DNA from: a virus | Direction: 5' to 3' (one strand) | IMG/VR virus record: IMGVR_UViG_3300026290_000001 | DNA length: 64,000 nucleotides | In this document: one piece after another, positions 1 to 18,951 of the stretch | Position numbering within the stretch: position 1 is the stretch's first letter | How the letters are laid out: each line of letters opens with the position of its first letter | The notes under the pieces: generated by a model | Seen by the model: the letters and a program-made list of their open reading frames with translations, nothing else | Databases searched by the model: none | What the model was told of the DNA's origin: nothing | Translations under genes and position numbers: made by a program

Positions 1-1
1 T

Positions 2-130
2 ATAGAACATGTAATTAACGAACAAGACTTATATGATAATTGGATTAAAATATCAAGAATTAATGAAAATTATATGCTTGATGATTTAGAAGGTTGTTCA
101 TATCAACCATCAATAAAACTATTAAAATAA
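2..130 (+). CDS. 3' end of a gene truncated by the window start (hypothetical protein)
   Basis: Open frame from position 2 ending at TAA 128-130 (…QPSIKLLK*); no recognisable motif. Confidence 0.35.
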   Translation: MEHVINEQDLYDNWIKISRINENYMLDDLEGCSYQPSIKLLK

Positions 131-173
131 AATCACAGATTGGTAATGAAATTTAGAAAGGAGTAGAAATACA

Positions 174-1475
174 ATATTAGAAGTAATTTATAAAACAGAA
201 AAAGGTAGACTTGTTCATGGTGATAATATTGAAGCAATGAGAAAAATTAAAGAAAATTCAGTTGATAGTTGTATATCAGATTTTCCTTATGATTTATCAT
301 TTATGGGTAAGAAATGGGATACTACAGGAAATTTTTATGAGTGGTGTAAAGATCGAGCAGAACCATTATATAGAATAATTAAGCCGGGAGGTTATGTTTG
401 TATCTTTGGGCATCCTAAAACTAATCACAGAATGAAGTCAGCTTTTGAAGATGTAGGGTTTAATATAGTTGAAGAAATTGATTGGGTTTATGGAACTGGT
501 TTTCCTAAGAATCAAGATATAGGAAAATTGTTTGATAAGAAAGCAGGAGCAGAAAGAGAAATTGTTGGATATTTAGATAGAAATGATAGAAAATTACCTA
601 GTGGCGAAGGTGGTACTCATGGTACGGCACATCAAGATTATTGTAATAATGGTAGAGAAACTATAAATTTATCAATTACTGCACCAGCTACAAATCAAGC
701 AAAGAAATGGGATGGATGGAAAACATCAGGATTAAAACCAGCACATGAACCAATTACTGTATTTCAAAAACCATTGGAAGGTACTTATATAAATAATATA
801 AATACATATGGTGTTGGTGGAATGAATATTAATGCTTGTAGGATAGAACATAATGAACCTATTAAAACAACAAATAGAAAACCAAGAAGTGCTACATGGA
901 ATATGGACACTTGTGGATTTGATAGCACAAACAATACTGTTGCTAGTGCTGATCCAAATGGCAGATTCCCTGCTAATATGATATTTGATTCTTCTATGGG
1001 AGAAGTATTAGATAATCAGAGTGGAATTAGTAAGTCAACGGGTGGAAGTGGAGATAAGAGCAAAGGTGCTTTAGGGGATAGTGTTTATGGAAAATATAAA
1101 AATGAAGAATTATCAGCTAATGCAGGAGGATTAGGAGATTCAAGTGGTGCTAGTAGATATTTCTTAAAGATAGATGCAGAAGATTTTGTACCATTTTTAT
1201 ATTGTCCTAAAGCATCTAAAAAAGAAAAAGGCGAAGGGAATACTCATGTAACTGTTAAACCTAAAGAATTAATAAAATGGCTCATTAAATTAGTTACACC
1301 TATAAATGGAAAAACAATTGATATTACTGCTGGTTCTGGTACACATGGTTTGGCTTGTGAAGAACTTAATAAGAATGAAGGTTATAATCTAAGATGGATT
1401 GATATTGAATTATTAAATACAGAGAAAGAACCTTATTGTGAAATTGCAATGAATAGAATTAAAAATGTAATATAA
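174..1475 (+). CDS. DNA methyltransferase, beta-class amino-MTase (N6A/N4C), motif IV variant DFPY; probable ATA start
   Basis: Track ORF 237..1475; motif IV-like SVDSCISDFPYD near N-terminus, motif I-like DITAGSGT near C-terminus; N-terminal homology (ILEVIYK…GDNIEAM) runs upstream of ATG 237 to in-frame ATA 174, 10 nt after AAAGGAG. Confidence 0.7.
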   Translation: MLEVIYKTEKGRLVHGDNIEAMRKIKENSVDSCISDFPYDLSFMGKKWDTTGNFYEWCKDRAEPLYRIIKPGGYVCIFGHPKTNHRMKSAFEDVGFNIVEEIDWVYGTGFPKNQDIGKLFDKKAGAEREIVGYLDRNDRKLPSGEGGTHGTAHQDYCNNGRETINLSITAPATNQAKKWDGWKTSGLKPAHEPITVFQKPLEGTYINNINTYGVGGMNINACRIEHNEPIKTTNRKPRSATWNMDTCGFDSTNNTVASADPNGRFPANMIFDSSMGEVLDNQSGISKSTGGSGDKSKGALGDSVYGKYKNEELSANAGGLGDSSGASRYFLKIDAEDFVPFLYCPKASKKEKGEGNTHVTVKPKELIKWLIKLVTPINGKTIDITAGSGTHGLACEELNKNEGYNLRWIDIELLNTEKEPYCEIAMNRIKNVI

Positions 1476-1606
1476 AAATATACAGAAAAATACAAATATA
1501 CATACTATATATAGTGGCATTAAGCAATTCATACCACAATATATAGAAAAATATTTGAATAAAATTCGGGTTTTGTCACAAAATTATTAAATAGAAAGGA
1601 GAATAT

Positions 1607-1867
1607 ATGAAAAAAATAAAATATTACTGTGACAAATGTAATAAAGAAATCCAAAAGGAAGATATTATTAAAAAAGAAATACCTACTATAGATAAAATTG
1701 AAGCAAGAGGTGGTAAGGGTAATCCTACCCCTGTATTATTAGTATTTGAAAACTTAGTTATGGATGAATATGAGTTATGCAAAAATTGTGCAGATTCATA
1801 TGAAATATTACATAATTATTTCTTAACTTTACTTGCAAAACAATGGTCTAAAGTAAATACCAAATAA
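1607..1867 (+). CDS. small zinc-ribbon protein (hypothetical)
   Basis: RBS AAAGGAG then ATG; two CxxC pairs (CDKC…CKNC). Confidence 0.5.
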   Translation: MKKIKYYCDKCNKEIQKEDIIKKEIPTIDKIEARGGKGNPTPVLLVFENLVMDEYELCKNCADSYEILHNYFLTLLAKQWSKVNTK

Positions 1868-1905
1868 TGCTTTCATAAAAACTAAAAAATAAGGAGAATA
1901 AATAT

Positions 1906-2340
1906 ATGAAAACTTTACTATTAATCTTAGGAATTATAATTCTAATTTCAAAGAAAAAGGCTATTCCAAATATTTTTAAATCTAAAGAAGTTAAGAGAAA
2001 AATGGCAGAAAAAATGTTTGATGAATTACCAGATAAGGCAAAGGAGTTACATATTGATCTTACCACATTAAAAGGCTTGTTAATTATATTTTTAGGTCTA
2101 TTTTGCTTGTTGTATATAATTTTTTATTTATTATCAGCAATATTTATTAATACCTTCGTATTCACTGTAATATCAATTCTATTAATGTTTCTTACAGTTA
2201 AAACTTTAAGTAATTTTCTAAAAGGTTTTGATAATACCGGAAATATAAAAGTAGAAAGTGTTGCATTTAGTATATTTAATATTATTGTTGATTTAGGATA
2301 CATAGGATATGTGTTTTTCAATATATATAAGATGTGGTAA
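1906..2340 (+). CDS. hypothetical membrane protein
   Basis: RBS AAGGAG; several strongly hydrophobic segments. Confidence 0.45.
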   Translation: MKTLLLILGIIILISKKKAIPNIFKSKEVKRKMAEKMFDELPDKAKELHIDLTTLKGLLIIFLGLFCLLYIIFYLLSAIFINTFVFTVISILLMFLTVKTLSNFLKGFDNTGNIKVESVAFSIFNIIVDLGYIGYVFFNIYKMW

Positions 2341-2387
2341 AACATCATAGAATAACGGTTTGGTGCAAAGTGAGGTGAAATTATTAA

Positions 2388-2552
2388 ATGACTTTTGGAT
2401 TTACTTATTTTATCTCTAAAAGGGATAAAAGCGCAGAAAGAATAATTAATATTGAAGCAGAGTCGGAAGAACAGGCATTTGATAAATACATAAAGTTTTT
2501 AAGTGAGCATCATATGGTTATGGGTGAATCACTTGGAGAAAAGTTAAAATAA
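2388..2552 (+). CDS. small hypothetical protein (54 aa), absent from the ORF track
   Basis: ATG 2388 after GTGAGGTGA RBS-like sequence; fills the gap between flanking genes. Confidence 0.3.
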   Translation: MTFGFTYFISKRDKSAERIINIEAESEEQAFDKYIKFLSEHHMVMGESLGEKLK

Positions 2553-2607
2553 AAACAACACAAAAAATCAATTTGGTTCAAACTTTTACAAAAAACACAA
2601 TATAAAA

Positions 2608-3378
2608 ATGAAAGGAGAATTAGTATATAAGTTGCAATTATACTATAAAGATGAATACATAAGATTATTTCAAGGTGATTGTTTAGAAGTAATGGATAGG
2701 TTAATTGAGAAAGGTGTTAAATTTGATGCAATAATTACTGATCCTCCTTACGGGACTACAGCTTGTAAATGGGATAGTATCATACCATTTGATAGTATGT
2801 GGGAAAGATTAAATAAGTTAATAAAGGATAATAGTGCAATAGTTTTATTTGGTAGTGAACCATTTAGTAGTCATTTAAGAGTAAGTAATATTAAAAATTT
2901 TAAATATGATTGGATATGGAATAAAAAGAAGGGAGGAAGTCCTTTACTTTCTAAAATACAACCAATAAAAATATTTGAAATTATATCTGTTTTTGGGAAA
3001 GGGAAAATAAATTATTATCCAGTAATGGTTGATAGAGATAAACCTAAATCAAGGGGTAAGAATAGAGGAACTATTAGTGATACAACAAATAATTGTTTTT
3101 CAGAAGATAAGATTTATACGCAATATTATCCTAAAGCAATTATAGAATTTTCAAATGCTAGTCAAAAAAATAAATTTCACCCAACTCAAAAACCAGTGGA
3201 GCTAATGGAATATCTTATTAACACATATACACAAGAGAATGAAATTATATTAGATTTTACTTGCGGTTCTGGTACAACATTATTAGCATCAAGAAATCTT
3301 AAAAGAAAATGTATCGGTATTGAATTGGAAGAAAAATATTGTGAAATAACTAAACAAAGATTAGAAAAAGCAAGTTAA
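2608..3378 (+). CDS. DNA methyltransferase, beta-class (DPPY)
   Basis: Motif IV AIITDPPYG, motif I DFTCGSGTT, TQKP motif; ATG 2608 overlaps the AAAGGAGAA RBS, so in-frame TTG 2632 may be the true start. Confidence 0.8.
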   Translation: MKGELVYKLQLYYKDEYIRLFQGDCLEVMDRLIEKGVKFDAIITDPPYGTTACKWDSIIPFDSMWERLNKLIKDNSAIVLFGSEPFSSHLRVSNIKNFKYDWIWNKKKGGSPLLSKIQPIKIFEIISVFGKGKINYYPVMVDRDKPKSRGKNRGTISDTTNNCFSEDKIYTQYYPKAIIEFSNASQKNKFHPTQKPVELMEYLINTYTQENEIILDFTCGSGTTLLASRNLKRKCIGIELEEKYCEITKQRLEKAS

Positions 3379-3505
3379 ATATAAAAACAGCATAAAATTC
3401 TAGTTTGGTTCAAAAATAGACGCCTAAAGATTGGGATTCTTAGAGTATGGATTTTTCAAAATAATTATTAAAATAAAAATATAAATATTGGAGGTAAATA
3501 TATAA

Positions 3506-4345
3506 TTGATAGAATTAAATAATTTTTATATAGGGGAATCTGTTAATTTTATGCGTAAAAATATTCCTGATAATTTTGTAGATTTAACAGTTACAAGTCC
3601 ACCTTATGATGATTTAAGAAAATATAATGGATTTATTTTTGATTATGAAACAATTTTTAAAGAACTTTTTAGAATAACTAAAAATGGTGGAATTGTTGTA
3701 TGGATAATAGGAGATAAGACAGAAAAAGGAACGGAAAGTCTAACAAGTTTTAAACATGCTTTAAGTGCTAAAAATATAGGATTTAATGTTCATGATACAA
3801 TGATATGGTTAAAACCTAATCCAACACCAACTGATCCTAAATGTTTAAGATATTATAATGCTTTTGAATACATGTTCGTTTTTTCTAAAGGAAAACCAAA
3901 AACATGTAATTATATAAAAGAAAAATCTAAAAATACAGGTAAAGAATTTGGTTCAGCTCCAATGAAAAGAGTAGATGGAACTAACAGAGATGACAGAACT
4001 GAAAAGTTAAAGGGTATAAAAATAAAAGACTATAAAATTAAAAGTAATGTATGGGAATGTGCTATAGGTTCAGGGGTATCTAAAGATAAAATTGCTTTTA
4101 AACATCCAGCAATTTTCCCTGAAAAATTAGTTGAAGATCACATAATTTCTTGGACTAATAAAAATGATATTGTACTAGACCCTATGTGTGGTTCGGGTAC
4201 AACGTGCAAAATGGCATGGTTAAACAAGCGTAATTTTATTGGAATTGATATGAGTGAAGAATACATAAATAACATTTGTATACCAAGATTAAATACATAT
4301 GGTTGGGAACAGAATAAAGAAAACGTATTTCAAGATTGCCTATAA
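3506..4345 (+). CDS. DNA methyltransferase, SPPY type (N4-cytosine-like or N6-adenine)
   Basis: TTG start 9 nt after GGAGG; TVTSPPYDDLRKYNG and DPMCGSGTT; paralog of 8521..9323. Confidence 0.8.
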   Translation: MIELNNFYIGESVNFMRKNIPDNFVDLTVTSPPYDDLRKYNGFIFDYETIFKELFRITKNGGIVVWIIGDKTEKGTESLTSFKHALSAKNIGFNVHDTMIWLKPNPTPTDPKCLRYYNAFEYMFVFSKGKPKTCNYIKEKSKNTGKEFGSAPMKRVDGTNRDDRTEKLKGIKIKDYKIKSNVWECAIGSGVSKDKIAFKHPAIFPEKLVEDHIISWTNKNDIVLDPMCGSGTTCKMAWLNKRNFIGIDMSEEYINNICIPRLNTYGWEQNKENVFQDCL

Positions 4346-4419
4346 ATTGGGCTTTATAATCTATAAAATCATTACCAAATTTGAGTTTGGTTCAAAGTTA
4401 TAGAAAGGAGAAATTATAA

Positions 4420-5256
4420 ATTATCAATACATATTATAAAAATAAATATGCAAGGATATATCAATGTGACAATTTAGAATTATTAAAACAATTACCAAAT
4501 GAATACATAGATTTAATTTATTGTGATATTTTATACAACACTGGTAAGAAATTTAAGGATTATGATGATCAATTAGGCACAACACAAGAAGCAATTAAAT
4601 GGTATAAACCAAGATTAATAGAAATGAAAAGAGTATTAAAGGAAACAGGATCAATTTATTTACATATGGATTTTAGATTAATACATTATTTAAAAGTAAA
4701 AATGGATGAAATATTTCAATTAAATAATTTTAGAAATGAGATTATATGGGATAAAGGATTTAGGGGTACGGAGCAAAAAGAGTTTTATCAACATTCGCAT
4801 GATTCAATATTATTTTATACAAAAACTAATAACTACATATGGAATAAAGTTTTTTGTGAATATGCTGATAAAAATATGAGTAGGTATAATAAAACTGATG
4901 AAGATGGAAATAAATATGCTTTAATTAAAAGAAAAAGAACAGACGGAAGTGTTTATTATGGCAAAACATATCCACAATCAGAAGGAAAGAAAGCAGACGA
5001 TGTATTTAGAGATATAAAAACTTTTTCATCAACAGCTAAAGAAAGAATTGGTTATGATACTCAAAAACCAAAGGCATTATTAGAACGTATTATTAAAGCA
5101 TCTTCTAATGAAGGAGATATAGTAGCAGACTTCTTTATGGGATCAGGCACTACTGGCGAAGTGGCATTAGAATTAGGTCGTAAATTTATTGGTTGTGATA
5201 TTGGGGAAAGGGCATGTGAGATTACTAAAAATAGATTAGATAAAATTATAATATAA
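4420..5256 (+). CDS. DNA methyltransferase homolog with degenerate motif IV (DILY); start uncertain (ATT 4420) or pseudogene
   Basis: Track ORF 4624..5256 has TQKP and DFFMGSGTT; upstream in-frame sequence ([31 protein letters not shown]) is clearly MTase N-terminus; no ATG/GTG/TTG between TAA 4417-4419 and 4624; ATT 4420 lies 9 nt after AAAGGAG. Confidence 0.55.
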
Positions 5257-5308
5257 AAACATGACAAAAACTATGTTTTATTTAGATTTTAAAAGAAAGG
5301 AGAAACAT

Positions 5309-5614
5309 ATGAAATTTATTAAAGATATTTCTAATATTATAATATTGCAAAATGATCATTGTAAATTTGAAATCAGAAGTGTACAAGGATTTAATGAAGA
5401 TGAAAATAAAATAATCTTAAAATGTGCCGAAGATATATCAGAGTTTAAAAAAGGTTATGTTTGTGATATGGAATGTCATTTTCCATTAGTTGAAAATGAT
5501 GGAGTTGAAGTTGGTGAAAGAATTGATACGATTCGAGACTTGGTATTGGTTTATATCAATAAAGATATTCAAATGGAATATGCCCCTAGTTTTGAATATG
5601 TATTTTATAAATAA
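5309..5614 (+). CDS. hypothetical protein
   Basis: Track ORF 5261..5614; ATG 5309 preceded by AAAGGAGAA is the likelier start. Confidence 0.5.
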   Translation: MKFIKDISNIIILQNDHCKFEIRSVQGFNEDENKIILKCAEDISEFKKGYVCDMECHFPLVENDGVEVGERIDTIRDLVLVYINKDIQMEYAPSFEYVFYK

Positions 5615-5659
5615 TAAAACAAAATTTCGATTTTATAACGATTTTAAAAGGAGGATATT

Positions 5660-5890
5660 ATGTTTAAAAAAATTAAAGTTAGAGAATTTTTAGAAGAAGT
5701 TTGCGGAGCAAAAGTTGATTGGATTTCTGGTAATGTAATTAAAGTAAATGAACATTATATTTATTTAGATAAAAAGAAATTTATTTTAAATTATGATTGG
5801 CATTTTTATGGAACAAAAAGAGATATATTAAAAACACTAAAAGAATATGGGTTTGTGATTAAAAAGAAATTACAGTTAAATTATTATTAG
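5660..5890 (+). CDS. hypothetical protein
   Basis: RBS AAAGGAGG then ATG. Confidence 0.5.
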   Translation: MFKKIKVREFLEEVCGAKVDWISGNVIKVNEHYIYLDKKKFILNYDWHFYGTKRDILKTLKEYGFVIKKKLQLNYY

Positions 5891-5906
5891 AAACGAAAGG
5901 AGAAAT

Positions 5907-6047
5907 ATGCATACTGAACTAACAGAGGATCAACTTAAACTAATAAAAAAGTATGGGGAAATTAATCCACCACATCATACTATTGAAGAAATTGAAGAAG
6001 CATTGAAAAAATCATCTGAAATTAAAATAAAATTACAAGAAAAATAA
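5907..6047 (+). CDS. small hypothetical protein (46 aa), absent from the ORF track
   Basis: AAAGGAGAAAT then ATG 5907, stop TAA 6045-6047. Confidence 0.3.
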   Translation: MHTELTEDQLKLIKKYGEINPPHHTIEEIEEALKKSSEIKIKLQEK

Positions 6048-6165
6048 ATATCGTGATAAAATCTCTATTTGGTGCAGAAATGGATGGCTATATATTGGGA
6101 TTTGTGGGGCTATAAATTTTGAAAATAAAAACAAAAAATAAAGATAGGAGGTAAATATATAAAAT

Positions 6166-7158
6166 TTGCTTGAATTGAATAAAATATATAATGAAGATTG
6201 TATAATCGGCATGAAAAAATTATTAAAAGATGGTTACAAAAATACTTTTGATTTTATAGAAATTGATCCACCTTATAATATAGGCAAAGATAAATGGGAT
6301 AAATTTAAAAACCATCAAACATATTTAAATTTTATTAATGAAGTTATAAGTTTATCTAATGAATTAATGAGCGATAATGGAACCTTATTTTTATGGCATA
6401 ATAATATCGAGGTGTTATCAGATTTTATTAAATTAATTAATACTACAGATTTAAAATTAATGCAATTATGTATATGGAATAAATATTATAAATATAATGA
6501 TGACGGTAATTTGAATAATCAATACGGATTTTTAAATGGATTTATTCAAAGTGATTTAAATAGGAATTATCAAAAAATGTGCGAATATATTTTATATTAC
6601 ACTAAACAAAACGAAGAATTAACTGAATATAATGAAAAAGACCCATTTAAATCACTAAAGGAATATTTTTTTAATGCCCAAAAATCTTCTGGTTTATCAA
6701 GAAATAAAATTAATCAAATATTGGGGCATAGACAATCTGAGCATACTTTTTATACTAAAACTCAATGGACTTTTCCAACAGAAGAAACATATTTAGAATT
6801 ACAAAATATAATGAATCTACCTATCCCTTATAATGATTTAAAAAATACATATGAAACAATGAGATATACATATAATTCAGAGAAAAACAATTATCGAAGT
6901 TGTATTTGGAATTACCCGATAAGTAAAGAATCAAAACACAAGACAGAGAAACCGTTACAATTGTATTATGATTTATATGAAATACATACAAAAAATAATA
7001 GTAAATGTTTATTCCCGTTTGTGGGTAGTGGTAATAATATTTTAAGTTTATTTAAAATAAATAATTTTGATGGAGGGAAACGAGAGTTTGTAGGTTTTGA
7101 AACTGACAAAACATGGTTTACTTATATAAATGAAAAAATAGATTTAAGAATCCCGTAA
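6166..7158 (+). CDS. DNA methyltransferase, beta-class (DPPY)
   Basis: TTG start after AGGAGG; FIEIDPPYNIGKDKWD and FPFVGSGNN. Confidence 0.8.
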   Translation: MLELNKIYNEDCIIGMKKLLKDGYKNTFDFIEIDPPYNIGKDKWDKFKNHQTYLNFINEVISLSNELMSDNGTLFLWHNNIEVLSDFIKLINTTDLKLMQLCIWNKYYKYNDDGNLNNQYGFLNGFIQSDLNRNYQKMCEYILYYTKQNEELTEYNEKDPFKSLKEYFFNAQKSSGLSRNKINQILGHRQSEHTFYTKTQWTFPTEETYLELQNIMNLPIPYNDLKNTYETMRYTYNSEKNNYRSCIWNYPISKESKHKTEKPLQLYYDLYEIHTKNNSKCLFPFVGSGNNILSLFKINNFDGGKREFVGFETDKTWFTYINEKIDLRIP

Positions 7159-7211
7159 TATTGGGATTCTTAAACCCAAAAATCAACACCAAACTTCGGT
7201 TTGGTTCAAAG
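7149..7211 (+). promoter_or_regulatory. copy of the repeated intergenic module (GC-stem hairpin, AAAATCA…AAAC box, TTTGGTTCAAA box)
   Basis: ATCCCGTAATATTGGGAT hairpin overlapping the upstream stop, then AAAAATCAACACCAAAC, then TTTGGTTCAAA ~10 nt before the RBS. Confidence 0.35.
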
Positions 7212-7232
7212 TTATAGGAAGGAGAAAATAAT

Positions 7233-7427
7233 ATGTTTGATTGTAGATTCGCTAAAAGTATTCTATTGGATAAAAATGAAGATGATACTTATCATATGAC
7301 AATAAAAGGAGATATTTATAATCTTGATCCTGAAGCGGAAATTGATTTTTCTAGAGTGAAAATTATTAATTTTGATATTGAGGCATTAGCAACAACTGGG
7401 ACAATATGTAAAATAAAAATAATATAA
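7233..7427 (+). CDS. hypothetical protein
   Basis: GGAAGGAGAA RBS then ATG. Confidence 0.4.
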   Translation: MFDCRFAKSILLDKNEDDTYHMTIKGDIYNLDPEAEIDFSRVKIINFDIEALATTGTICKIKII

Positions 7428-7521
7428 AATTTTTGTTTGGTTAAGAAATTTATAATTATTATAGGGATTGATTTTACCATAATTTTAATATATAATAAAA
7501 ATAAAAACGGAGGTTTTATAT

Positions 7522-7692
7522 ATGGCGATTAAATTAGAATGTGATAAAATCATTCCAAAGTGTAGTGATTGTAAATATAATAAGGATTATTCTTCTTGGC
7601 AACATAAAATTCCTTGTGGAAAACAATTCTGTGTATATGGTTGTAATGTATGTAAAAATCCATGTGATGCAAAGGAGAATATGTCTTGGTAA
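7522..7692 (+). CDS. small cysteine-rich protein (56 aa, 10 Cys), absent from the ORF track
   Basis: RBS ACGGAGG then ATG 7522; stop 7690-7692. Confidence 0.35.
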   Translation: MAIKLECDKIIPKCSDCKYNKDYSSWQHKIPCGKQFCVYGCNVCKNPCDAKENMSW

Positions 7693-7720
7693 AAATTAAT
7701 ATTAATAAAGGAGTTATAGT

Positions 7721-8461
7721 TTGTATAAATCGCCTCTTAGATATCCAGGAGGTAAAAGCAGGGCGATAAAAATAATTATCGAGTATTTTCCGAAAAGTAT
7801 AAAAGTTATGAGTTCTCATTTTGTAGGAGGAGGATCAATTGAACTTTATTTATCTGAAAATAATAAAATAATTGCGTATGATAATTTCGATCTGCTTATT
7901 AACTTTTGGAATCAATTAAAATATAAAAATAAAAATTTACATAATACAATATTAAAATATTACCCGTTAACAAAAGAACAATTTTTAGATATACAAAAAA
8001 ATATTTATAATTCAGATGATGAAGTTGAAATGGCCGCTAAATTTTATGTTTTAAATAGATGTAGTTTTTCAGGTAGTACATTAAGCGGTGGAATGTCACT
8101 AAATCATCCAAGATTTAATATTAATTTAATACATAAACTTCAGGAAGTAAATTTAAAAAATATTGAGTTTATTTGTATGGATTTCAAAGAATCAATATTA
8201 TTACATCAAAATAATTTTAAGTATTTAGACCCACCCTATTATATTGAAAATAATTTATATGGAGTAAAAGGAGGGTTACATAAAAATTTCGATCATATTG
8301 GTTTGAATGGTATTTTAAAACAATCATCTAATTGGGTATTAAGTTACAATGATTGTGAATACATAAGAAAACTTTATGAAGGATGCAAAATAATACAAGT
8401 TGATTGGAAATACGGAATGAGTAAAGATAAAAAATCTAATGAAATTCTTATAATAAATTAG
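7721..8461 (+). CDS. Dam-like N6-adenine DNA methyltransferase (D12 class)
   Basis: TTG start after AAAGGAG; N-terminal LRYPGGKSR and later FKYLDPPYY, the Dam-family motif order. Confidence 0.8.
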   Translation: MYKSPLRYPGGKSRAIKIIIEYFPKSIKVMSSHFVGGGSIELYLSENNKIIAYDNFDLLINFWNQLKYKNKNLHNTILKYYPLTKEQFLDIQKNIYNSDDEVEMAAKFYVLNRCSFSGSTLSGGMSLNHPRFNINLIHKLQEVNLKNIEFICMDFKESILLHQNNFKYLDPPYYIENNLYGVKGGLHKNFDHIGLNGILKQSSNWVLSYNDCEYIRKLYEGCKIIQVDWKYGMSKDKKSNEILIIN

Positions 8462-8520
8462 TAATATAAAAACAATATAAATATTTGGTTTGGTCATGAA
8501 ATATGAAAGGAGATTATATT

Positions 8521-9323
8521 TGATAGAATTAAATAATTTTTACATAGGCGAGTCTGTTAATTTTATGCGTTACAATATTCCAGACAACTACATTGATTTA
8601 ACTATTACTTCACCACCTTATGATGATTTAAGAAAATATAATGGATTTATATTTGATTATCAAAGTATGTTTAAGGAATTATATAGAGTTACTAAAGACG
8701 GTGGAATTGTAGTTTGGGTAGTAGGAGATAAAACTGAAAATGGTAGTGAAACATTAACAAGTTTTAAACATGCTTTATATGCTAAAGAAATCGGTTTTAA
8801 TGTTCACGATACACAAATTTATTATAAGAATAATCCTATACCAACAACAGGCAATAGATATCATCAACACTTTGAATATATGTTCGTATTTAGCAAGAAT
8901 AAACCAAGGGTATTTAATCCAATCAAGGAAGATTGTAAATATAGTGGTTTGGCTAATATGAAAAATAGAGGCAAGGATGGTTCATTAAATTATACTAAAA
9001 TTGAAAGAACTAAAGATAAAAAGGTAGGTAATGTTTTCTTTTATTCTATTGGAGGGGGTATTACTACTAAAGATAAAATTGCTTATAGTCATCCTGCGTT
9101 GTTTCCAGATAAATTAGCCGAAGATCAAATAATAACTTGGAGCAATAAAGAAGATATTATTTTTGACCCAATGTGCGGTAGTGGTACTACTTGTAAAATG
9201 GCATGGTTAAATAAAAGAAATTTTATTGGAATTGATATAAGTGAAGAATATATAAATGATATTTGTATACCTAGACTAAATATATATGGTTGGCAACAAA
9301 AGCAAAATATAAAAATATCATAA
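8521..9323 (+). CDS. DNA methyltransferase, SPPY type; paralog of 3506..4345
   Basis: Track ORF 8490..9323; the ATG lies upstream of the AAAGGAGA RBS, so TTG 8521 is the probable start; TITSPPYDDLRKYNG, DPMCGSGTTCKMAWLNKRNFIGID. Confidence 0.8.
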
Positions 9324-9428
9324 AATAAAAATCCCAATTTCTAGGGATTTACAAAACTCAAAAACATGATCAAAACTTCGTTTTGTTACATCAATAAAAC
9401 AATAAAATAAATTAAGGAGGGAAATAAA

Positions 9429-9884
9429 ATAGCGGATTTTGATAACAATAGATTTGCTTCAAAAAATCAAGAGTACGCAACACCTTGGGAATTATTTAAT
9501 AAGATAAATGAAGAATTTAATTTTACCTTAGATGTGTGTGCAGATGAAAATAATCATAAAGTTGATACATATTTTACGGAAGAACAAAATGCTCTTATCC
9601 AAAATTGGAAAGGAGTATGTTGGATGAATCCACCTTATAAGGATATGAAAAAATGGGTTATAAAAGCATACGAAGAATCAGTTAAAAATGATAGTATTGT
9701 GGTTTGTTTAATTCCAGCAAGAACTAATACCAAATGGTGGCATGAGTATTGCATGAAAGGTGAAATAAGATTTATTAAAGGTAGACCAAAATTTGAAGGA
9801 TGTATTCATGGTTTACCACAACCATTAGCAATTGTTGTTTTTGGAAAAGAATATAAAAATACATATGGTTCATTAGCAATTTAG
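9429..9884 (+). CDS. phage-type N6-adenine DNA methyltransferase (NPPY); probable ATA start
   Basis: Track ORF 9534..9884 (GTG) carries VCWMNPPYK; upstream in-frame ADFDNNRFASKNQEYATPWELFNKINEEFNFTLDVCAD is the family N-terminus; frame opens at 9411; ATA 9429 is 8 nt after AAGGAGG. Confidence 0.7.
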   Translation: MADFDNNRFASKNQEYATPWELFNKINEEFNFTLDVCADENNHKVDTYFTEEQNALIQNWKGVCWMNPPYKDMKKWVIKAYEESVKNDSIVVCLIPARTNTKWWHEYCMKGEIRFIKGRPKFEGCIHGLPQPLAIVVFGKEYKNTYGSLAI

Positions 9885-9910
9885 TAAAAATATCAAGCAA
9901 ACAATGATAT

Positions 9911-9955
9911 ATAGGCATTTTCAACTTATCACAAATGCCTATATATTGGGCTTTT
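9911..9955 (+). terminator. perfect 10-bp stem hairpin followed by a short T-run, candidate intrinsic terminator
   Basis: ATAGGCATTT (9911-9920), 12-nt loop, AAATGCCTAT (9933-9942), then ATATTGGGCTTTTAC. Confidence 0.35.
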
Positions 9956-10014
9956 ACAAAAATCATTACCAAAATATCATTTTATATTAATTAGAAAGGA
10001 GAAACAAAATATAA

Positions 10015-10584
10015 TTGAGTAAAAAATATAACATTATATATGCTGACCCACCTTGGAAACCTACTGAGAGTGGTACAGGAGTTAGAGGTACGGCAGATTT
10101 AAAAAAACGATATCAAGGTGTAATGAGTATAGAAGAAATATGTGCTTTACCAGTAAAAGATATATGTGAAGATACATGCATACTGTTTTTATGGGTTACA
10201 TTTCCAAGATTACAAGAAGGAATGAAAACTATTGAAGCGTGGGGATTTCAATATTATGGGTTGGGATTTGATTGGATTAAAACTAATCTTAAAAGTGGAA
10301 CTCCATTTTGGGGAATGGGTTATTATACTAGACAAAATTCAGAAATATGCTTAATAGGAGTAAAAAAGGATAAAAATAAAAGAATTAAACCACAAGTTAA
10401 AAATATTTTATCTGTAGTTCATTCACCAAGAAGAGAACATAGTCAAAAACCTGATGAAATAAGAGATTACATAGTTAAAATTTGTGGTGATTTACCTAGA
10501 ATAGAATTATTTGCTAGACAAAAAGTTGAAGGTTGGGACGCATGGGGCAATGAAATTGAAAATGATATTATATTAAATACATAA
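10015..10584 (+). CDS. MT-A70 family N6-adenine DNA methyltransferase (DPPW)
   Basis: TTG start after AAAGGAGAA; IIYADPPWKP motif and family-typical downstream blocks. Confidence 0.75.
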   Translation: MSKKYNIIYADPPWKPTESGTGVRGTADLKKRYQGVMSIEEICALPVKDICEDTCILFLWVTFPRLQEGMKTIEAWGFQYYGLGFDWIKTNLKSGTPFWGMGYYTRQNSEICLIGVKKDKNKRIKPQVKNILSVVHSPRREHSQKPDEIRDYIVKICGDLPRIELFARQKVEGWDAWGNEIENDIILNT

Positions 10585-10667
10585 AATAAAAATTATCATA
10601 AAAGTCTGAATTGGTTTAGAGTTAATAAAAATGAAAAATAAAAATAGGGAGGTATCTAATACATAAA

Positions 10668-11438
10668 TTGATTGAATTGAATACTATTTATAATGAAGAT
10701 TGTATTAACTTTATGAAGAAACTACCTAATGAATCTATTGATTTAATAATTGCCGATCCACCTTATTTTGAAATATGCGGAGAGTTTGATTTTATATGGA
10801 AATCATTAGATGACTATTTAAATTGGTCTAAAGAATGGATTTTACAATGTTATAATATTTTAAAACCATCAGGCAGTATTTATATATGGGGTAAAATTGG
10901 ATTTGGTAAGGGGTATTCTTTATTTAAAATTGCAGATTGGATAGAGAATGAAAAACTGTTTATTATAAAAAATTGGATTACTCAACGTAATACAAGAGGG
11001 AGAGGAACAAAGAAAGGGTATATAGAGGCAAGAGAAGAACTTCTGTTTTGCGTAAAGTCTAATCAATGTACTTGGAATATTGCTTATACCGAAGAAAAAT
11101 CTAATAGAAAAGATTTAGGATTTGATGGCAAACCTAGAAAAAATGAGTTTAAAAGATGCTCTGATGTATGGATTGATATAGCTGAAGCAAGTCAATCAAG
11201 TAATGAAAGATTTAAAACATTTAATGGTAAAACTTTTCCAACAGTTAAAGCACAAAAATTATGTAATAGAATTATTTTGGCAAGTTCTAATGAAAATGAT
11301 TTAGTTTATATTCCCTTTGCTGGTTCTGGAAGTGAAATTGAATCTTGTATAAAAAATAAAAGAAATTGGATTGCGACAGAAATTAATAATCAATACATAA
11401 ATGAAATCATTGAACCTAGAATTAAACGTATAATATAA
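10668..11438 (+). CDS. DNA methyltransferase, beta-class (DPPY)
   Basis: TTG start after GGGAGG; LIIADPPYFE and IPFAGSGSE. Confidence 0.8.
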   Translation: MIELNTIYNEDCINFMKKLPNESIDLIIADPPYFEICGEFDFIWKSLDDYLNWSKEWILQCYNILKPSGSIYIWGKIGFGKGYSLFKIADWIENEKLFIIKNWITQRNTRGRGTKKGYIEAREELLFCVKSNQCTWNIAYTEEKSNRKDLGFDGKPRKNEFKRCSDVWIDIAEASQSSNERFKTFNGKTFPTVKAQKLCNRIILASSNENDLVYIPFAGSGSEIESCIKNKRNWIATEINNQYINEIIEPRIKRII

Positions 11439-11665
11439 AAAATAAAAATCATGATAAAATAAGTGTTTTATCATAATATTGCAGAAATCAGTATTTTGGT
11501 AGGTTATCAACAAATACACACAACAAAGCCCTAAATGGTGGGAATGAAAAGGTATTTTAAGTGGATTAACTCTACCAAAGTAAAAAATATTTGAACCAAA
11601 TGCGTCTTTTATTCAAAGTTTATTAAAAACATAAAATAAATATAAAGAAAAGAGGATTATATATA

Positions 11666-12370
11666 TTGAAACATATTTTAAGTTTTAGTGGCGGCAAAGA
11701 TTCAACCGCAATGTTACTCATAATGTTAGAGAGAGAATATCCAATAGATGAAATTATATTTTGCGATACTGGTAAAGAATTTCCTGCTTTATATAGACAT
11801 ATTGATAAAGTTGAAGAATACATAAACCAACCTATAACTAGGCTTAAAGGAGAAAAAACTTTTGATTATTGGATGTTCGAACATGAAAAAACCAAAGGTA
11901 AACATTTAGGTAAAAAGGGTTATGGTTGGGCAGACACCAGAGCAAGATGGTGTACAGCATATTTTAAGCGTGAAATTATGAATAAATACATAAAAGAAAA
12001 ATATAATAATGAATATAAAGAGTATGTAGGTATTGCTTATGATGAGTTTAAAAGATATGAGAAAACACAAAATGGTCATAAAAAATATCCTTTAATTGAA
12101 TGGAAAATAACTGAAGGTATGGCTCTAAAATATTGCTATGATAAAGGATTTGATTGGGAAGGAGTATACACACATTTTGAACGGGTATCTTGCTGGTGCT
12201 GCCCTTTAAAAAATCAGAGAGAATTATATATGCTTTATTCTTTCTATCCTGAATTATGGGCAGAACTCAAAGATATGGATAGTAGAGCATGGAACCAGTT
12301 TAAAAGAGATTACAGTGTTCAGGATTTAGAAGATAAATTTAGGGGATGGCAAGACATAATAAAAATATAA
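11666..12370 (+). CDS. PAPS reductase family protein (PP-loop, with C-terminal CC cluster)
   Basis: TTG start after AAGAGGA; PP-loop SFSGGKDS; C-terminal SCWCCP. Confidence 0.7.
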   Translation: MKHILSFSGGKDSTAMLLIMLEREYPIDEIIFCDTGKEFPALYRHIDKVEEYINQPITRLKGEKTFDYWMFEHEKTKGKHLGKKGYGWADTRARWCTAYFKREIMNKYIKEKYNNEYKEYVGIAYDEFKRYEKTQNGHKKYPLIEWKITEGMALKYCYDKGFDWEGVYTHFERVSCWCCPLKNQRELYMLYSFYPELWAELKDMDSRAWNQFKRDYSVQDLEDKFRGWQDIIKI

Positions 12371-12434
12371 ATATTTACTTTCTTTATAGTATGGTGTATA
12401 ATAAATATATCATATCTATATAGGAGGTTAAATT

Positions 12435-12644
12435 ATGAAAACATATAAAACTGAATCAGGAGAAGAATGGTTATATTTTGATGAATGGTTAGTAGAAAAC
12501 AGTTATTATAAATGGAAAAAACAATATGATATTTTAGCAAGTACGGGGACAGATGAAGAAGAAATAGATAGGATTAAAGACGATTTATTAAAACAATTCT
12601 ATGATTTTTGTGAAGAATATGGGTATGTTGGTCAGGAAGTATAA
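12435..12644 (+). CDS. hypothetical protein
   Basis: RBS TAGGAGG then ATG. Confidence 0.45.
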   Translation: MKTYKTESGEEWLYFDEWLVENSYYKWKKQYDILASTGTDEEEIDRIKDDLLKQFYDFCEEYGYVGQEV

Positions 12645-12668
12645 TTTATAATTTTTGTGTTTTACGAA

Positions 12669-12728
12669 CCCCTAAATAATGGGGTTTGTGAAACCAAAAA
12701 TCATGATAAAACTCATCTTTTGTGTTGA
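12669..12728 (+). promoter_or_regulatory. copy of the repeated intergenic module
   Basis: CCCCTAAATAATGGGG hairpin, AAAAATCATGATAAAAC, TTTTGTGTTGA. Confidence 0.35.
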
Positions 12729-12764
12729 TATTAAAATTTAAATATAAGGAGGTAATATTATTAA

Positions 12765-13517
12765 TTGTTTGAATTAAATAAAATATATTGTGTTGATTGT
12801 TTAGAAGGGATTAAAAATATAGAAAGTGGCAGTATTGATATGGTATTTTTTGATCCTCCTTTCAATTTAAACAAAGATTATGGAATTAAAATTAATGATA
12901 ATTTAATAAAAGAAAAATATTTAAACTGGCAGTATGAAATATTAAAAGAATCTATTAGAGTGCTATGTGATAATGGGGCAATAATTTATCATACTATCCC
13001 AAAATGGGCATTTAAAATAGCTAATTATCTTGATGAACAAGGAATGGTTTTTCAAAATTGGATTTGTTGGAATGAATCAGGATCAACACCTACCCCTTCA
13101 AGATTATATCCTAAACATTATCCTATTCTTTGGTTTTCTAAGAATAAACTCAAAACTTTTAATAAACAATATATTCCCATAGAAAGATGCAGAAAGTGCA
13201 ATACTACTATAAAAGATTATGGTGGCAAATTTAAAGATTTAAAAGAAATAGATGGTGAAAAAGTAACTGTTTTAAGTGATGTATGGGACGATATACATAG
13301 AATAAGACATAATAAAAATAAAAATAGAAAATCAAATGAACTTCCCGAAATTTTAATGGAAAGAATAATTAACTTATATTCTAAAGAAAATGATATAATT
13401 TTAGACCCATTTTCAGGTAGTGGGACAACATGTAAAATAGCAAAGAAACTAAATAGACAATATATTGGATTTGAAATTAATCCTGAATACATAAAAATCT
13501 CAAAAGAACGTATTTAA
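12765..13517 (+). CDS. DNA methyltransferase, beta-class (DPPF)
   Basis: TTG start after AAGGAGG; VFFDPPFNLNKDYG and DPFSGSGTT. Confidence 0.8.
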   Translation: MFELNKIYCVDCLEGIKNIESGSIDMVFFDPPFNLNKDYGIKINDNLIKEKYLNWQYEILKESIRVLCDNGAIIYHTIPKWAFKIANYLDEQGMVFQNWICWNESGSTPTPSRLYPKHYPILWFSKNKLKTFNKQYIPIERCRKCNTTIKDYGGKFKDLKEIDGEKVTVLSDVWDDIHRIRHNKNKNRKSNELPEILMERIINLYSKENDIILDPFSGSGTTCKIAKKLNRQYIGFEINPEYIKISKERI

Positions 13518-13598
13518 AACAACAAAATAATATTATTGACGTTGTTGACTTTGTTTGTGAAAATTGATATAATTAATAAAAATGTAGGAGGTATATTT

Positions 13599-13859
13599 AT
13601 GGCAGTACGCAGACAAAGGGCAACAACTAGTGCAGAAATAATGGATAAAGATATTAAAATAGTAATTAAAAAATCAAAAGTTCGCTATAGAAGTGTAGAA
13701 TCAAAATCTCATGGTTTTGTTAATGAATTTTGGATTGAAAAAATTGATGATTTATTTTTTTCAGGAGGTAAAATAAGTGAAGAAAGAATTTATCAACATT
13801 GGAAATTCAACTTTGATAAAAATAAGTGGGAGTGTATAGAAGACAAATCTAAAAATTAA
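13599..13859 (+). CDS. hypothetical protein
   Basis: Track ORF 13536..13859; ATG 13599 after TAGGAGG is the likelier start. Confidence 0.45.
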   Translation: MAVRRQRATTSAEIMDKDIKIVIKKSKVRYRSVESKSHGFVNEFWIEKIDDLFFSGGKISEERIYQHWKFNFDKNKWECIEDKSKN

Positions 13860-13878
13860 TTTAATAAGAAAAATACAA

Positions 13879-13940
13879 ATCCCATTATATCGGACTTCAT
13901 TTTTATAAAAATCATGATAAAACTTGTCTTTTGTCATGAT
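13879..13940 (+). promoter_or_regulatory. copy of the repeated intergenic module
   Basis: ATCCCATTATATCGGA, AAAAATCATGATAAAAC, TTTTGTCATGA. Confidence 0.35.
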
Positions 13941-13972
13941 ATTAAAACAAAAATAAATATGGAGGTTAAAAT

Positions 13973-15394
13973 ATAATTAAATTAAATAAGTTTGCATTAG
14001 TACAATTAACTCCAAAAGATATGCGAAGCCAAGATAGTATAAATTTAGGATTAGAAATTATATCTGAAATAGTTAAAAAACAAGGTTGGCAATTAGATAC
14101 ATATAAATTCGGAGATAAAATTCAAGATGTTAATTCATATGATATTATAGGGTTTAGTTTATTCTATTTTACACAAATGTTAAATTTAGTTCCATTCCTA
14201 AAGAGTAATAATATTAAACCATTAAGTAGTAAAAGAAACAATCAACCACTATTATTAGCTGGCGGTCAAGGTATTCAAAATCCTAAACCAATTAGTAAAT
14301 TTATTGATGTATTTTGTATGGGTGAGGGTGAGGGGGTTTTGGAATATATCTTAGAAAATTATAAAAATAAAAATATTTTATCAAACCATAAGTCTTTGTA
14401 TATACCAAATATAAATGATAATTTTATATTCAACTCAATAAAAGATGTTGATTCTAAACCTATAATTTATGGTAAAAATAGCATGATAGAATTAACGAGG
14501 GGATGTAAAAATAGATGTAAGTTTTGTCAGTATGGATGGACAAATGGTAAATATCGAGAAAAAAACATCGAACTAGTAAAACAACAAATATTAGAGGTTA
14601 AAGATAAAGGCATTAAAAATATTAACTTGTTAAGTTGTAATTTGGGTGGTTATTCTAAGATAAATGAAGTTCTTGATTTTTGTATAGAAGAAAATATTAG
14701 ATTAATGAATACCGATATGAGAATTGACGAATATAGTGAAGAAATAGCTATAAAATTAGACCTACTAAAAGTGAGAACTCTAAAAGTTGGAGTAGAAAGC
14801 TTTTCTGATCAAACACGAATTGGTATTAATAAGAATATTTCAAAAATACAATTAGATACTTTTATTGACAGAGCTTTGAAGCATAATATATCAAATTTAC
14901 ATTTTTATTTAATATACGGACTTCCAAACGAAGAAAACTATAATGAATGGTTTAATTATATGGAATACATAAAAAATAGAATAAAATCTGTTGATAGAAA
15001 TATAAGAATTGAATTTAGTATTACTAATTTTGAACCAGCAATATATACACCCTTTGAAAAAAGTCCTTTAATTAATTTCCAAGACAAGCATAAATTTATG
15101 AGAGAATATTTAATAAAACAAGAAGAATTGGGTTATATAAAACAACCCGCACAAACAAAAGATTATAAAAATAGTCATGGAAGATTAGGCAGAAAAGAAC
15201 GAAGTTATAATATTGGAATGTGGTTACTACATGGGGACGAAACTGTAGGGGATGTGTTATATGAATTAAACATTAAAGGAATAGGTAGGAGTATAAATGA
15301 AAAGATTTATAATCAAATTTATAAAATATGCCAATCAAAAACTGATGTTTATCAAATAAGAAACATTCAAGATTTAAATGAAAATATATGGTGA
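13973..15394 (+). CDS. B12-binding-domain radical SAM protein; probable ATA start
   Basis: CX3CX2C radical SAM motif (GCKNRCKFCQ); upstream GEGEG-containing B12-binding-like segment; frame opens at 13970; ATA 13973 is 7 nt after GGAGG; track ATG 14021 has no RBS. Confidence 0.7.
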   Translation: MIKLNKFALVQLTPKDMRSQDSINLGLEIISEIVKKQGWQLDTYKFGDKIQDVNSYDIIGFSLFYFTQMLNLVPFLKSNNIKPLSSKRNNQPLLLAGGQGIQNPKPISKFIDVFCMGEGEGVLEYILENYKNKNILSNHKSLYIPNINDNFIFNSIKDVDSKPIIYGKNSMIELTRGCKNRCKFCQYGWTNGKYREKNIELVKQQILEVKDKGIKNINLLSCNLGGYSKINEVLDFCIEENIRLMNTDMRIDEYSEEIAIKLDLLKVRTLKVGVESFSDQTRIGINKNISKIQLDTFIDRALKHNISNLHFYLIYGLPNEENYNEWFNYMEYIKNRIKSVDRNIRIEFSITNFEPAIYTPFEKSPLINFQDKHKFMREYLIKQEELGYIKQPAQTKDYKNSHGRLGRKERSYNIGMWLLHGDETVGDVLYELNIKGIGRSINEKIYNQIYKICQSKTDVYQIRNIQDLNENIW

Positions 15395-15402
15395 TGTCCA
15401 TG

Positions 15403-15460
15403 CCTATAAATTGGGATTCTCAACACTCAAAAACATGATAAAACTAGTTTTTGGTCATGA
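15403..15460 (+). promoter_or_regulatory. copy of the repeated intergenic module
   Basis: CCTATAAATTGGGATTC, AAAAACATGATAAAAC, TTTTGGTCATGA. Confidence 0.35.
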
Positions 15461-15470
15461 AATTAAATGC

Positions 15471-15499
15471 TTGACAAATATTAATTAAAATAGTAATAT
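15471..15499 (+). promoter_or_regulatory. sigma-70/sigmaA-type promoter upstream of the ligase gene
   Basis: TTGACA (15471-15476), 17-nt spacer, TAATAT (15494-15499); RBS GGGAGGAAGG; ATG 15526. Confidence 0.5.
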
Positions 15500-15525
15500 A
15501 AAGATACTGCGAAGGGAGGAAGGTT

Positions 15526-17397: not shown

Positions 17398-17400
17398 AAT

Positions 17401-17640
17401 ATGAACGATAAAATCTATATTATACCTAGAGAAGATAAACCAATAAAATTCATTATTGAAGAATTACCATGTCCTATCTGTTCACAAATTGGATATGATT
17501 TTAGATGTGAACATGCCAAAAGTAGTTTTAAAGATTTAATATATACAATATCTTGTACTAATTTTAATCATTGTGAAAATGCAGAGAATATATCATTGAA
17601 ATTCAATGAGTTAATACAAGATGAGTTGTTAACCACTTGA
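17401..17640 (+). CDS. hypothetical Cys-rich protein
   Basis: ATG immediately after the ligase stop; CPICSQ…CEH…C. Confidence 0.45.
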   Translation: MNDKIYIIPREDKPIKFIIEELPCPICSQIGYDFRCEHAKSSFKDLIYTISCTNFNHCENAENISLKFNELIQDELLTT

Positions 17641-17950
17641 CAGATTAGTAAAATAAATATATAATAAAATTACAACAAAATATCAAAAATATCAATTTTA
17701 CAAATCCCAATATATAGCCATTCTTGAAGGTGAAAATCAACACCAAATCTGCGTTTTGTCACAACTTTTATGAATGCTAATATACAGGGCTTGAGAATTG
17801 CTATTTTAAGCGAAAATACGGTAAAATCAATGGTTTTAAGTAATTACTAAAATTAGCTTTACATAAAGTCCAATATATAGGCGTTTATAATTCTAAAAAT
17901 CGTGACAAAAGTGTCATTTTGTTTAGAAATTATAGAAAGGGGAATTAAAT

Positions 17951-18192: not shown

Positions 18193-18951
18193 TTGATTGA
18201 ATTGAATAAAATTTATAATGAAGATTGTATAGGTGGAAGGGGTATGTGTTTAATCCCAAATGAATCAATCGATATGATTTTATGTGATCTTCCGTATGGA
18301 ACTACGATGGCGAAATGGGATAAGATTATCAACCAAGAAGAATTGTGGACGCAGTATAGAAGGATAATTAAACCCAGAGGGGCAATTGTACTAACTTCTA
18401 GTCAGCCATTTTCAAGTGCTTTAATATATAAAAACCTAGACATTTATAGGCATTCATGGGTTTGGGAAAAGAACAATTCTGCAGATTATGCCAATGCAAA
18501 TTGTAGACCAATGAAAATACATGAGGAAGTATTGGTATTTTCATTCGCACATGATGTTGCTCCTGCTAAAGTAAAGATGATTTATAATCCACAGGGGCTA
18601 ATACCAGTTAATAAGCCCAATCGGAGAGGTAGACATAGTGAAACAACAGGTCATTTTAGAGAGAATGAGTACATACAAAAATACACAAACTATCCTACTA
18701 CAATATTGAGGTTTGCTTCAGATAAAGATAAAATTCACTCTACACAAAAACCTGTGGCGTTGTTTGAATATCTTATAGAAACATATAGTAATGAAGGTGA
18801 TTTGGTTTTAGATAATTGTATAGGCTCAGGCACAACAGCGATTGCGTGTATAAACATCAAACGTAAATTTATAGGGTTTGAAAATGACAATACATATTTT
18901 GAGTTAGCAAACAAAAGAATAGAAGAACATAAATGTAAAATAAATATTTGA
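18193..18951 (+). CDS. DNA methyltransferase, beta-class, motif IV variant DLPY
   Basis: TTG start after AAAGGAGA; MILCDLPYGTT; TQKP; DNCIGSGTT. Confidence 0.75.
   Translation: MIELNKIYNEDCIGGRGMCLIPNESIDMILCDLPYGTTMAKWDKIINQEELWTQYRRIIKPRGAIVLTSSQPFSSALIYKNLDIYRHSWVWEKNNSADYANANCRPMKIHEEVLVFSFAHDVAPAKVKMIYNPQGLIPVNKPNRRGRHSETTGHFRENEYIQKYTNYPTTILRFASDKDKIHSTQKPVALFEYLIETYSNEGDLVLDNCIGSGTTAIACINIKRKFIGFENDNTYFELANKRIEEHKCKINI

Follow-up and report, generated by a model that had tools for sequence, protein, structure and literature searches.

The IMG/VR viral record IMGVR_UViG_3300026290_000001 was analysed over a stretch of 64,000 nucleotides (hereafter the window), in which two related genes for DNA methyltransferases, MT-A and MT-B, lie about 5 kb apart on the plus strand. 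They are located in the first 19 kb, in a run of plus-strand genes that are mostly DNA methyltransferases, 12 of which have significant Pfam matches. In total, this island comprises at least 14 methyltransferase genes on one strand: 11 of the PF01555 family, one D12 Dam, one phage Dam, and one MT-A70. MT-A (3506..4345, +) encodes a protein of 279 amino acids and MT-B (8520..9323, +) one of 267, both from a TTG start codon. Whole proteins score 149.1 and 135.0 bits, respectively, with the PF01555 (N6_N4_Mtase) model, both above its gathering threshold of 26.7 bits, and are recognized as beta-class enzymes with an SPPY motif. A first-pass annotation of the window placed the pair at the same boundaries, except for the start of MT-B at 8521. 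This position is out of frame (21 stops), and the true TTG start is 8520. The open frame of MT-B reaches further upstream, to a TTG at 8490 and an ATG at 8496; the start was set at 8520 because a ribosome-binding site, AAAGGAG, is found 9 nt 5' of this TTG, and because homology within the family likewise begins there. The TTG start, considered previously as a shared trait of the two genes, is indeed found in both but is not peculiar to them, being used by 8 of 14 island methyltransferases.

The two proteins are identical at 180 of 275 aligned positions (65%; BLASTP, E 1e-132), and the corresponding DNA sequences at 72.6% over 825 nt, with 12 gaps. Similarity in DNA sets in 5 nt upstream of the start codon, ends about 30 nt short of the stop codon, and is formed by two blocks, one of 300 nt (82%; 3501-3800 with 8515-8814) and one of 235 nt (81%; 4080-4314 with 9067-9301). 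The longest exact match is 38 nt long (at 3599 and 8613), embedded in sequences of 82% identity, and represents the longest exact direct repeat in the first 20 kb of the window. The blocks TSPPYDDLRKYNGFIFDY and DPMCGSGTTCKMAWLNKRNFIGID, quoted in the first-pass annotation as identical, are the same in MT-A and MT-B, and all invariant residues of the family are kept in both proteins. Among the 12 methyltransferase open reading frames (ORFs) of the window, this is the closest pair, followed by 38% identity for the next and 25-30% for the others. The initial description of two related ORFs about 5 kb apart is therefore accurate; they are homologues and the closest pair of the island, although "near-duplicate" is an overstatement for proteins sharing 65% of residues. 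The central divergence noted at the same time is also evident, as residues 136-186 of MT-A are 30% identical to MT-B, while the rest of the protein is 73% identical.

Motifs in MT-A follow the order TSPPY (residues 30-34), the variable segment (136-186), and DPMCGSGTT (225-233). In the beta class, the recognition domain is located between the catalytic N-terminal half and the C-terminal half that binds S-adenosylmethionine (AdoMet). Because the variable segments sit between the SPPY half and the AdoMet-binding half, they are taken as putative target-recognition domains, at 3911..4063 (+) in MT-A ("A class") and at 8919..9047 (+, residues about 134-176) in MT-B ("B class"). The AlphaFold2 model of MT-A (pLDDT 88.6) matches the solved beta-class enzymes 8s9m, 1g60, 6pbd, 1boo, and 1eg2 (Foldseek E 1e-17 to 1e-15). 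The top matches, N4CMT of the rotifer Adineta vaga (8s9m/8s9o), M.MboIIA, CcrM, M.PvuII (1boo), and M.RsrI, have a fold like that of MT-A (TM-score 0.6-0.8), with the catalytic (S/D)PP(Y/F) motif in the N-terminal and FxGxG in the C-terminal part. In contrast, their sequences are only 16-25% identical to MT-A, and recognition segments are unrelated. The SPPY motif, i.e. serine instead of D or N in motif IV, is present in MT-A, in MT-B, and in MT-C, a third member of the family found on a contig that extends the sequence upstream (L001, 4330-5145; 2.2 kb upstream of the window). Since SPPY or SPPF in motif IV marks N4-cytosine methyltransferases, MT-A and MT-B are probably N4-cytosine specific. 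No NCBIfam model exceeded its cut-off for any of the three proteins.

The two recognition segments are each widespread in other proteins. For the A-class segment, identity to 37 other proteins averages 80% and reaches 96%; for the B-class segment, identity to 67 others averages 77% and reaches 86%. Conservation ranges between 72 and 96% across both sets. Single-linkage clustering at 50% sorted the segments of 202 sequences into about 40 classes; mosaics were not seen in this sample. MT-C, 55-57% identical to MT-A and MT-B, carries a third type of segment. As judged from these segments, MT-A and MT-B likely differ in sequence specificity and should methylate two different short DNA sequences. 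The divergence of specificity proposed in the first-pass annotation is thus reasonable inasmuch as the segments differ, but both classes pre-existed and neither of them evolved in this island. In some class members recognition segments are 90% identical while termini are only about 55% identical, as seen in the family alignment of this biased sample, a pattern which hints that scaffolds and recognition modules have recombined with each other across the methyltransferase family. The family is represented by more than 591 loci in species-representative genomes, all at most 60% identical to MT-A, in Clostridia, Helicobacter, Brachyspira, Bacteroidota, Patescibacteria, Acidobacteriota, DPANN, and Asgard archaea. 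Relatives of both classes were also found as single orphan genes in other phage-like contigs. For the A class, a restriction partner was sought in six metagenomic contigs and none was found, all genes being orphans in phage-like contexts.

To place the pair within the family, relatives were searched for among 5.8 billion proteins. This search disclosed 39 protein clusters nearer to MT-A than MT-B is (up to 83% identity) and 63 clusters nearer to MT-B than MT-A is (up to 86%), whereas the near relatives of either copy reach no more than 48-64% identity to its counterpart. Ranked by alignment distance, MT-B is the 36th neighbour of MT-A, and MT-A the 42nd neighbour of MT-B. In neighbour-joining trees, the two are sisters in none of 100 bootstraps and always at least 8 internal branches apart; in the tree of 201 family members, the smallest side of a bipartition containing both has 141 leaves. 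Their identity outside the recognition segment (73%) falls inside a family-wide plateau of about 66-77%. Among the 171 shared residues, 113 are encoded by identical codons, compared with 101.9 ± 5.9 expected from codon usage of the phage (z 1.9); a significant excess was likewise absent from every single region and pair. Similarity in DNA is thus explained by protein conservation combined with extreme A+T codon bias; synonymous sites between the two genes are saturated and the split is old. No duplicated flanking DNA was found around MT-A and MT-B, and their flanks have in common only a generic intergenic motif (described below). The overall similarity of the pair far exceeds shared motifs, but it is of the family or subfamily level, with no recent paralogy. 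Most likely, MT-A and MT-B are not recent duplicates but separately collected items of the phage island. They would have arrived as separate single-gene cassettes, or by a split predating the spread of both classes through many phages.

Cellular relatives offer clues to the targets and role of these enzymes. In Helicobacter vulpis and in two Brachyspira genomes, the family gene, whose protein is 53-57% identical to MT-A, overlaps at its stop codon with the start codon of a downstream gene for a His-Me finger endonuclease with a restriction-endonuclease SH3 domain, a layout which we take to be the Hpy99I architecture. By this synteny-backed homology, M.Hpy99I of Helicobacter pylori J99 is placed in the same family as MT-A and MT-B and shares with them the beta-class layout. 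M.Hpy99I is listed as a Type IIP beta-class N4-methylcytosine (m4C) enzyme for CGWCG (PMC3936762). In combination with the SPPY motif, the Hpy99I-type partners in Helicobacter and Brachyspira support N4-cytosine chemistry. However, M.Hpy99I has a cognate endonuclease in its cell, whereas MT-A and MT-B are solitary phage genes. Recognition segments also differ from those of Hpy99I-type relatives, the best cellular match to the MT-A segment being 41%. The CGWCG sequence is absent from the window.

The B class is associated with a different partner. Endonucleases of the R.HinP1I family (PF11463) adjoin cellular B-class genes in 4 of the 6 loci examined, with full-length matches (E ~ 1e-86) at L094, L079, and L063 and a fragment at L078; no endonuclease partner was found at the remaining two (L082 and L097). 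These HinP1I-type modification enzymes, from Bacteroidota and Ignavibacteria, are of the same recognition class as MT-B, 74-79% identical to it in the segment and about 66% overall. They differ from MT-B, which lacks such a partner, and their own target is deduced from the partner family. HinP1I cuts GCGC. Because cellular genes of the same class adjoin R.HinP1I-family endonucleases, MT-B probably protects GCGC by methylation, and the prediction is that it methylates this sequence. Direct literature on m4C at GCGC in HinP1I-type systems was not found. In the window, GCGC is not clearly under-represented (10 observed, 13.6 expected). Under-representation was noticed for GGCC, CCGG, AGCT, and GATC (0.23, 0.27, 0.43, and 0.52 of expectation in the whole window), despite the presence of two Dam-type genes.

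No endonuclease gene adjoins MT-A or MT-B; within the sensitivity of Pfam, their neighbours are other methyltransferases or small ORFs, of which those scanned lack a significant match. Since the cellular relatives pair with restriction enzymes, the island methyltransferases most likely serve in anti-restriction, that is, in escape from host restriction enzymes. According to this proposal, the phage would methylate its genome at a large number of motifs, a different one for each island member, and would so escape Type II restriction enzymes of the host. Lactococcal phages of the 936 type carry one or two orphan methyltransferase genes. These are, like MT-A and MT-B, solitary and phage-borne, and are reported to protect phage DNA from host restriction enzymes (PMC4190342); they are horizontally acquired. 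Unlike 936-type phages, the phage studied here has at least 14 clustered methyltransferases, three of which are members of a single family, each with its own recognition type.

Almost every gene of the island is preceded by an AT-rich, bipartite intergenic motif, AAAAtCATGAyAAAA and TTTGGTyMwrA, separated by about 6 nt. About 20 copies are present between 1 and 19.1 kb, compared to about 3 in the remaining 45 kb, and every copy is intergenic. In the island they are at 1559, 2551, 3383, 4365, 5255, 5611 (minus strand), 6050, 7179, 7421, 8468, 9360, 9959, 11445, 11586 (minus strand), 12697, 13908, 15429, 17733, 17896, and 19085, and outside it at 43822 and 46408 (minus strand). MT-A is flanked by the copies at 3383..3416 (+; nhmmer E 0.0019) upstream and 4365..4402 (+; E 1.2e-6) downstream, the latter preceded by a small terminator-like hairpin, GCCTATAAATTGGGC, at 4338-4352. 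The copies flanking MT-B are at 8468..8502 (+) upstream and 9360..9392 (+) downstream, with a hairpin at 9329-9350 before the second one. Small hairpins of G+C precede only some copies of the motif. No consistent sigma-70 promoter consensus was found in it. Folding of the two motif halves into a hairpin was also considered and rejected, with pairing of 69.1% compared to 71.1% in shuffled sequences and unsupportive covariation.

Evidence of gene movement is provided by two short contigs from two other samples, L007 and L008. They carry MT-B with 99.3% identity, but share with the window positions 8471-9386 only, and their flanks are unrelated to the window and richer in G+C. Both breakpoints of this common cassette fall inside motif copies, those starting at 8468 on the left and at 9360 on the right, in the one case observed. 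Location of the MT-B cassette in an unrelated context indicates that MT-B moved between genomes as a unit. Cassette exchange is shown for MT-B alone, and it does not prove the route by which MT-A arrived. A similar organization is known in T4-type phages, in the form of promoter-early stem-loop (PeSL) cassettes (PMC2839356, PMC4122927). In both, a short repeated intergenic motif flanks variable single-gene cassettes, and exchange breakpoints are positioned inside the motifs. They differ in that the sequence and the phage group are unrelated, that the island motif has no sigma-70 consensus and no support for a hairpin, and that only one exchanged cassette is on record here. Tentatively, and with considerable doubt, the island might be envisaged as a dedicated collecting device, in which the motif acts both as an expression signal and as a recombination junction, and single methyltransferase cassettes are swapped between unrelated phages. 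If so, a phage of about 135 kb would have assembled 14 or more specificities, three of them as recognition types of a single scaffold, thereby widening its host range, and the island would be a functional analogue of PeSL shuffling in T4, specialised for anti-restriction. The island would become a second, independent example of PeSL-like cassette shuffling if its intergenic motifs turned out to be junctions of exchange.

Combining these data, we consider it likely that MT-A and MT-B are solitary beta-class methyltransferases of two old recognition classes, which entered the island as anti-restriction genes, with no recent duplication at this locus. Several observations weigh against this. The basis for assigning N4-cytosine chemistry is the SPPY motif together with fold neighbours and a single literature link via synteny, and that for assigning GCGC is 74-79% segment identity, where few substitutions can alter specificity. 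In addition, GCGC is rare in the phage, 10 sites in 64 kb, so the value of its protection would be limited. Mutual identity of MT-A and MT-B (65%) is higher than that of either protein with copies from 185,579 species-representative genomes, among which MT-A reaches at most 60%; as the pair is closer mutually than to cellular copies, the two would have a phage-borne subfamily in common, and an old duplication in an ancestral phage is possible. The N- and C-terminal segments of about 60 residues are 80-86% identical among MT-A, MT-B, and MT-C, and MT-C is the best of 202 matches to the C-terminus of MT-B, although such regional ranks are biased because homologues were sampled by similarity to MT-A or MT-B. 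The alike termini of the three proteins could derive from older gene conversion.

Other histories of the pair were evaluated against these results. An ancient duplication in an ancestral phage lineage, with MT-A, MT-B, and MT-C inherited vertically and single copies transferred to other phages, appears unlikely to us. It would agree with N- and C-terminal segments that are 74-88% identical between MT-A, MT-B, and many other classes, while certain proteins of the A and B classes differ more at their ends (54-57% on average), with the lack of any copy above 60% identity to MT-A in cellular genomes, and with the methyltransferase cluster also carried by a relative with a 137-kb genome. However, the MT-B cassette recurs at 99.3% identity in an unrelated genome, where similarity breaks off at the cassette borders, and this speaks for recent horizontal movement of single cassettes. 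In the regions fetched, the related large phages L016-L018 are without homologues of MT-A, MT-B, and MT-C, and in other phyla B-class enzymes are well represented among cellular restriction-modification systems. Concerted evolution, in which separately acquired MT-A, MT-B, and MT-C had their termini homogenised by gene conversion, is in our view improbable. Equally similar termini (up to 88-93%) exist in many unrelated database proteins, and identical synonymous codons are not in significant excess at any terminus (z 0.9-2.1 in 12 tests). The signal in its favour comes from regional ranks, which sampling bias inflates: MT-C is 1st of 202 for the C-terminal 56 residues of MT-B but 112th-180th in other regions, and MT-A and MT-B rank 7th-30th for each other at the termini and 60th-139th in the middle.

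Duplication followed by divergence of specificity, the scenario favoured in the first-pass annotation, would require that one gene was recently copied about 5 kb away and that positive selection then remodelled its central segment. Each copy has closer relatives elsewhere, the two are never sisters in bootstrapped trees, synonymous sites are saturated, flanking DNA is not duplicated, and the conserved parts are just as similar (73%) as the family plateau predicts. Moreover, dozens of other proteins share each recognition segment at 72-96% conservation, which means that no remodelling of either took place here. These results contradict the scenario and make it highly improbable, even though the pair is by far the most alike among the island methyltransferases, holds the 38-nt direct repeat, and shows a small excess of identical codons among the first 60 (36, with 29.5 expected; z 2.1).

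The two genes were also suggested to mediate deletion or inversion. They are in direct orientation, and recombination between them could delete or duplicate the intervening DNA but not invert it. Deletion, possible in principle, would remove 5,014 bp with the methyltransferase genes M4, M5, and M6 and small ORFs, leaving a chimeric gene. At 38 nt, the longest exact match lies close to, or under, the shortest length at which RecA-type recombination is efficient. In at least 7 metagenome assemblies (JGI 3300009647, 3300009607, 3300026194, 3300026195, and 3300009671; ENA ERZ27268616 and ERZ27268626), the island is 100% identical where contigs overlap, except for one mismatch in L004. Neither a deletion variant nor an MT-A/MT-B chimera was found in these assemblies, which are consensus sequences where rare variants could be hidden, and chimeras were equally absent from the 90%-identity protein clusters of both enzymes. 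Proteins P0223 and P0226, considered as a possible diverged strain, are in fact encoded by this same DNA; their apparent difference comes from reading the TTG start as L.

Taken alone, the pair is ordinary biology, as orphan methyltransferases of phages are already known, and it is the island of at least 14 genes that is notable. Within this methyltransferase family, 65% identity is near the family background and is no sign of recent duplication. On a single conserved scaffold, the family carries dozens of discrete recognition classes that are exchangeable, and its distribution extends from Clostridia to Asgard archaea. This makes it suitable for studying how about 45 residues set the specificity of an N4-cytosine methyltransferase. 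An island of 14 genes suggests a phage that faces many restriction systems or many hosts. In the literature on phage methyltransferase islands and per-genome counts, the coverage of which was incomplete, no comparable array was found described, so novelty is not proven.

Other methyltransferases of the island are all on the plus strand. M1 (237..1475, PF01555) has 412 amino acids. M2 (2608..3378, PF01555) has the DPPY motif. M4 (4420..5256, PF01555) probably starts with ATT at 4420, 9 nt after a GGAG ribosome-binding site; from this start it scores 186 bits with PF01555, compared to 159 bits from the ATG at 4624. Motif IV of M4 is DILY, not (D/N/S)PPY, which suggests an inactive or unusual enzyme. 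M5 (6166..7158, PF01555) has the DPPY motif, and M6 (7721..8461, PF02086) is a D12-class, Dam-like N6-adenine methyltransferase. Downstream of MT-B, M8 (9429..9884, PF05869) belongs to the phage Dam family and has the NPPY motif. Its full-length N-terminus requires a probable ATA start at 9429, immediately 3' of AAGGAGGG, from which it scores 112 bits, compared to 83 bits from the GTG at 9534. M9 (10015..10584, PF05063) is of the MT-A70 family, with the DPPW motif, while M10 (10668..11438), M11 (12765..13517, DPPF motif), and M12 (18193..18951) are again members of PF01555. Contigs extending upstream of the window add two further PF01555 genes (L001, 3250-5145), and weak, sub-threshold N6-methyltransferase-like matches were observed in upstream ORFs of L015 (5541-6113 and 8540-9232). 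Weak start codons (TTG, GTG, ATT, and ATA) are found in 11 of 14 methyltransferases; the other long ORFs, whose starts are mechanical calls, have them in 9 of 41 cases (Fisher p 2.7e-4). Such codons may limit methyltransferase dosage.

Several genes of other types are interspersed among the methyltransferases. In addition to a gene for an NAD-dependent ligase, there is a gene of the PAPS-reductase family (11666-12370) and a radical SAM gene of the B12-binding type (14021-15394). The last two might take part in another DNA modification.

The element is a phage. The same sequence is found in contigs of 135-138 kb with differing end points, and in one of them the island is split across both contig ends, indicating that the genome of about 135 kb is circular or circularly permuted. 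G+C content is 26-30% in the window and about 27% in the phage. There is no close cultured relative, as a DNA search of positions 1-20000 against phage and plasmid collections gave just one match of 69 nt. Judged by the polymerase, the nearest cultured phage is Clostridium phage Amboise (48%), which has one annotated methyltransferase in the 30 kb around its polymerase gene. The IMG/VR relative L017 (137 kb) has at least 5 methyltransferase genes in 13 kb. The rest of the window holds a replication module, with a DnaB-like helicase, primase, RecJ-like exonuclease, PolIII-alpha-type polymerase, Dda-like helicase, and NrdD, together with genes for a tyrosine integrase and for tail proteins of the SPbeta-like type. 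A gene for an RRXRR and HNH endonuclease was observed on the minus strand (54449-55741), in the midst of late or structural genes.

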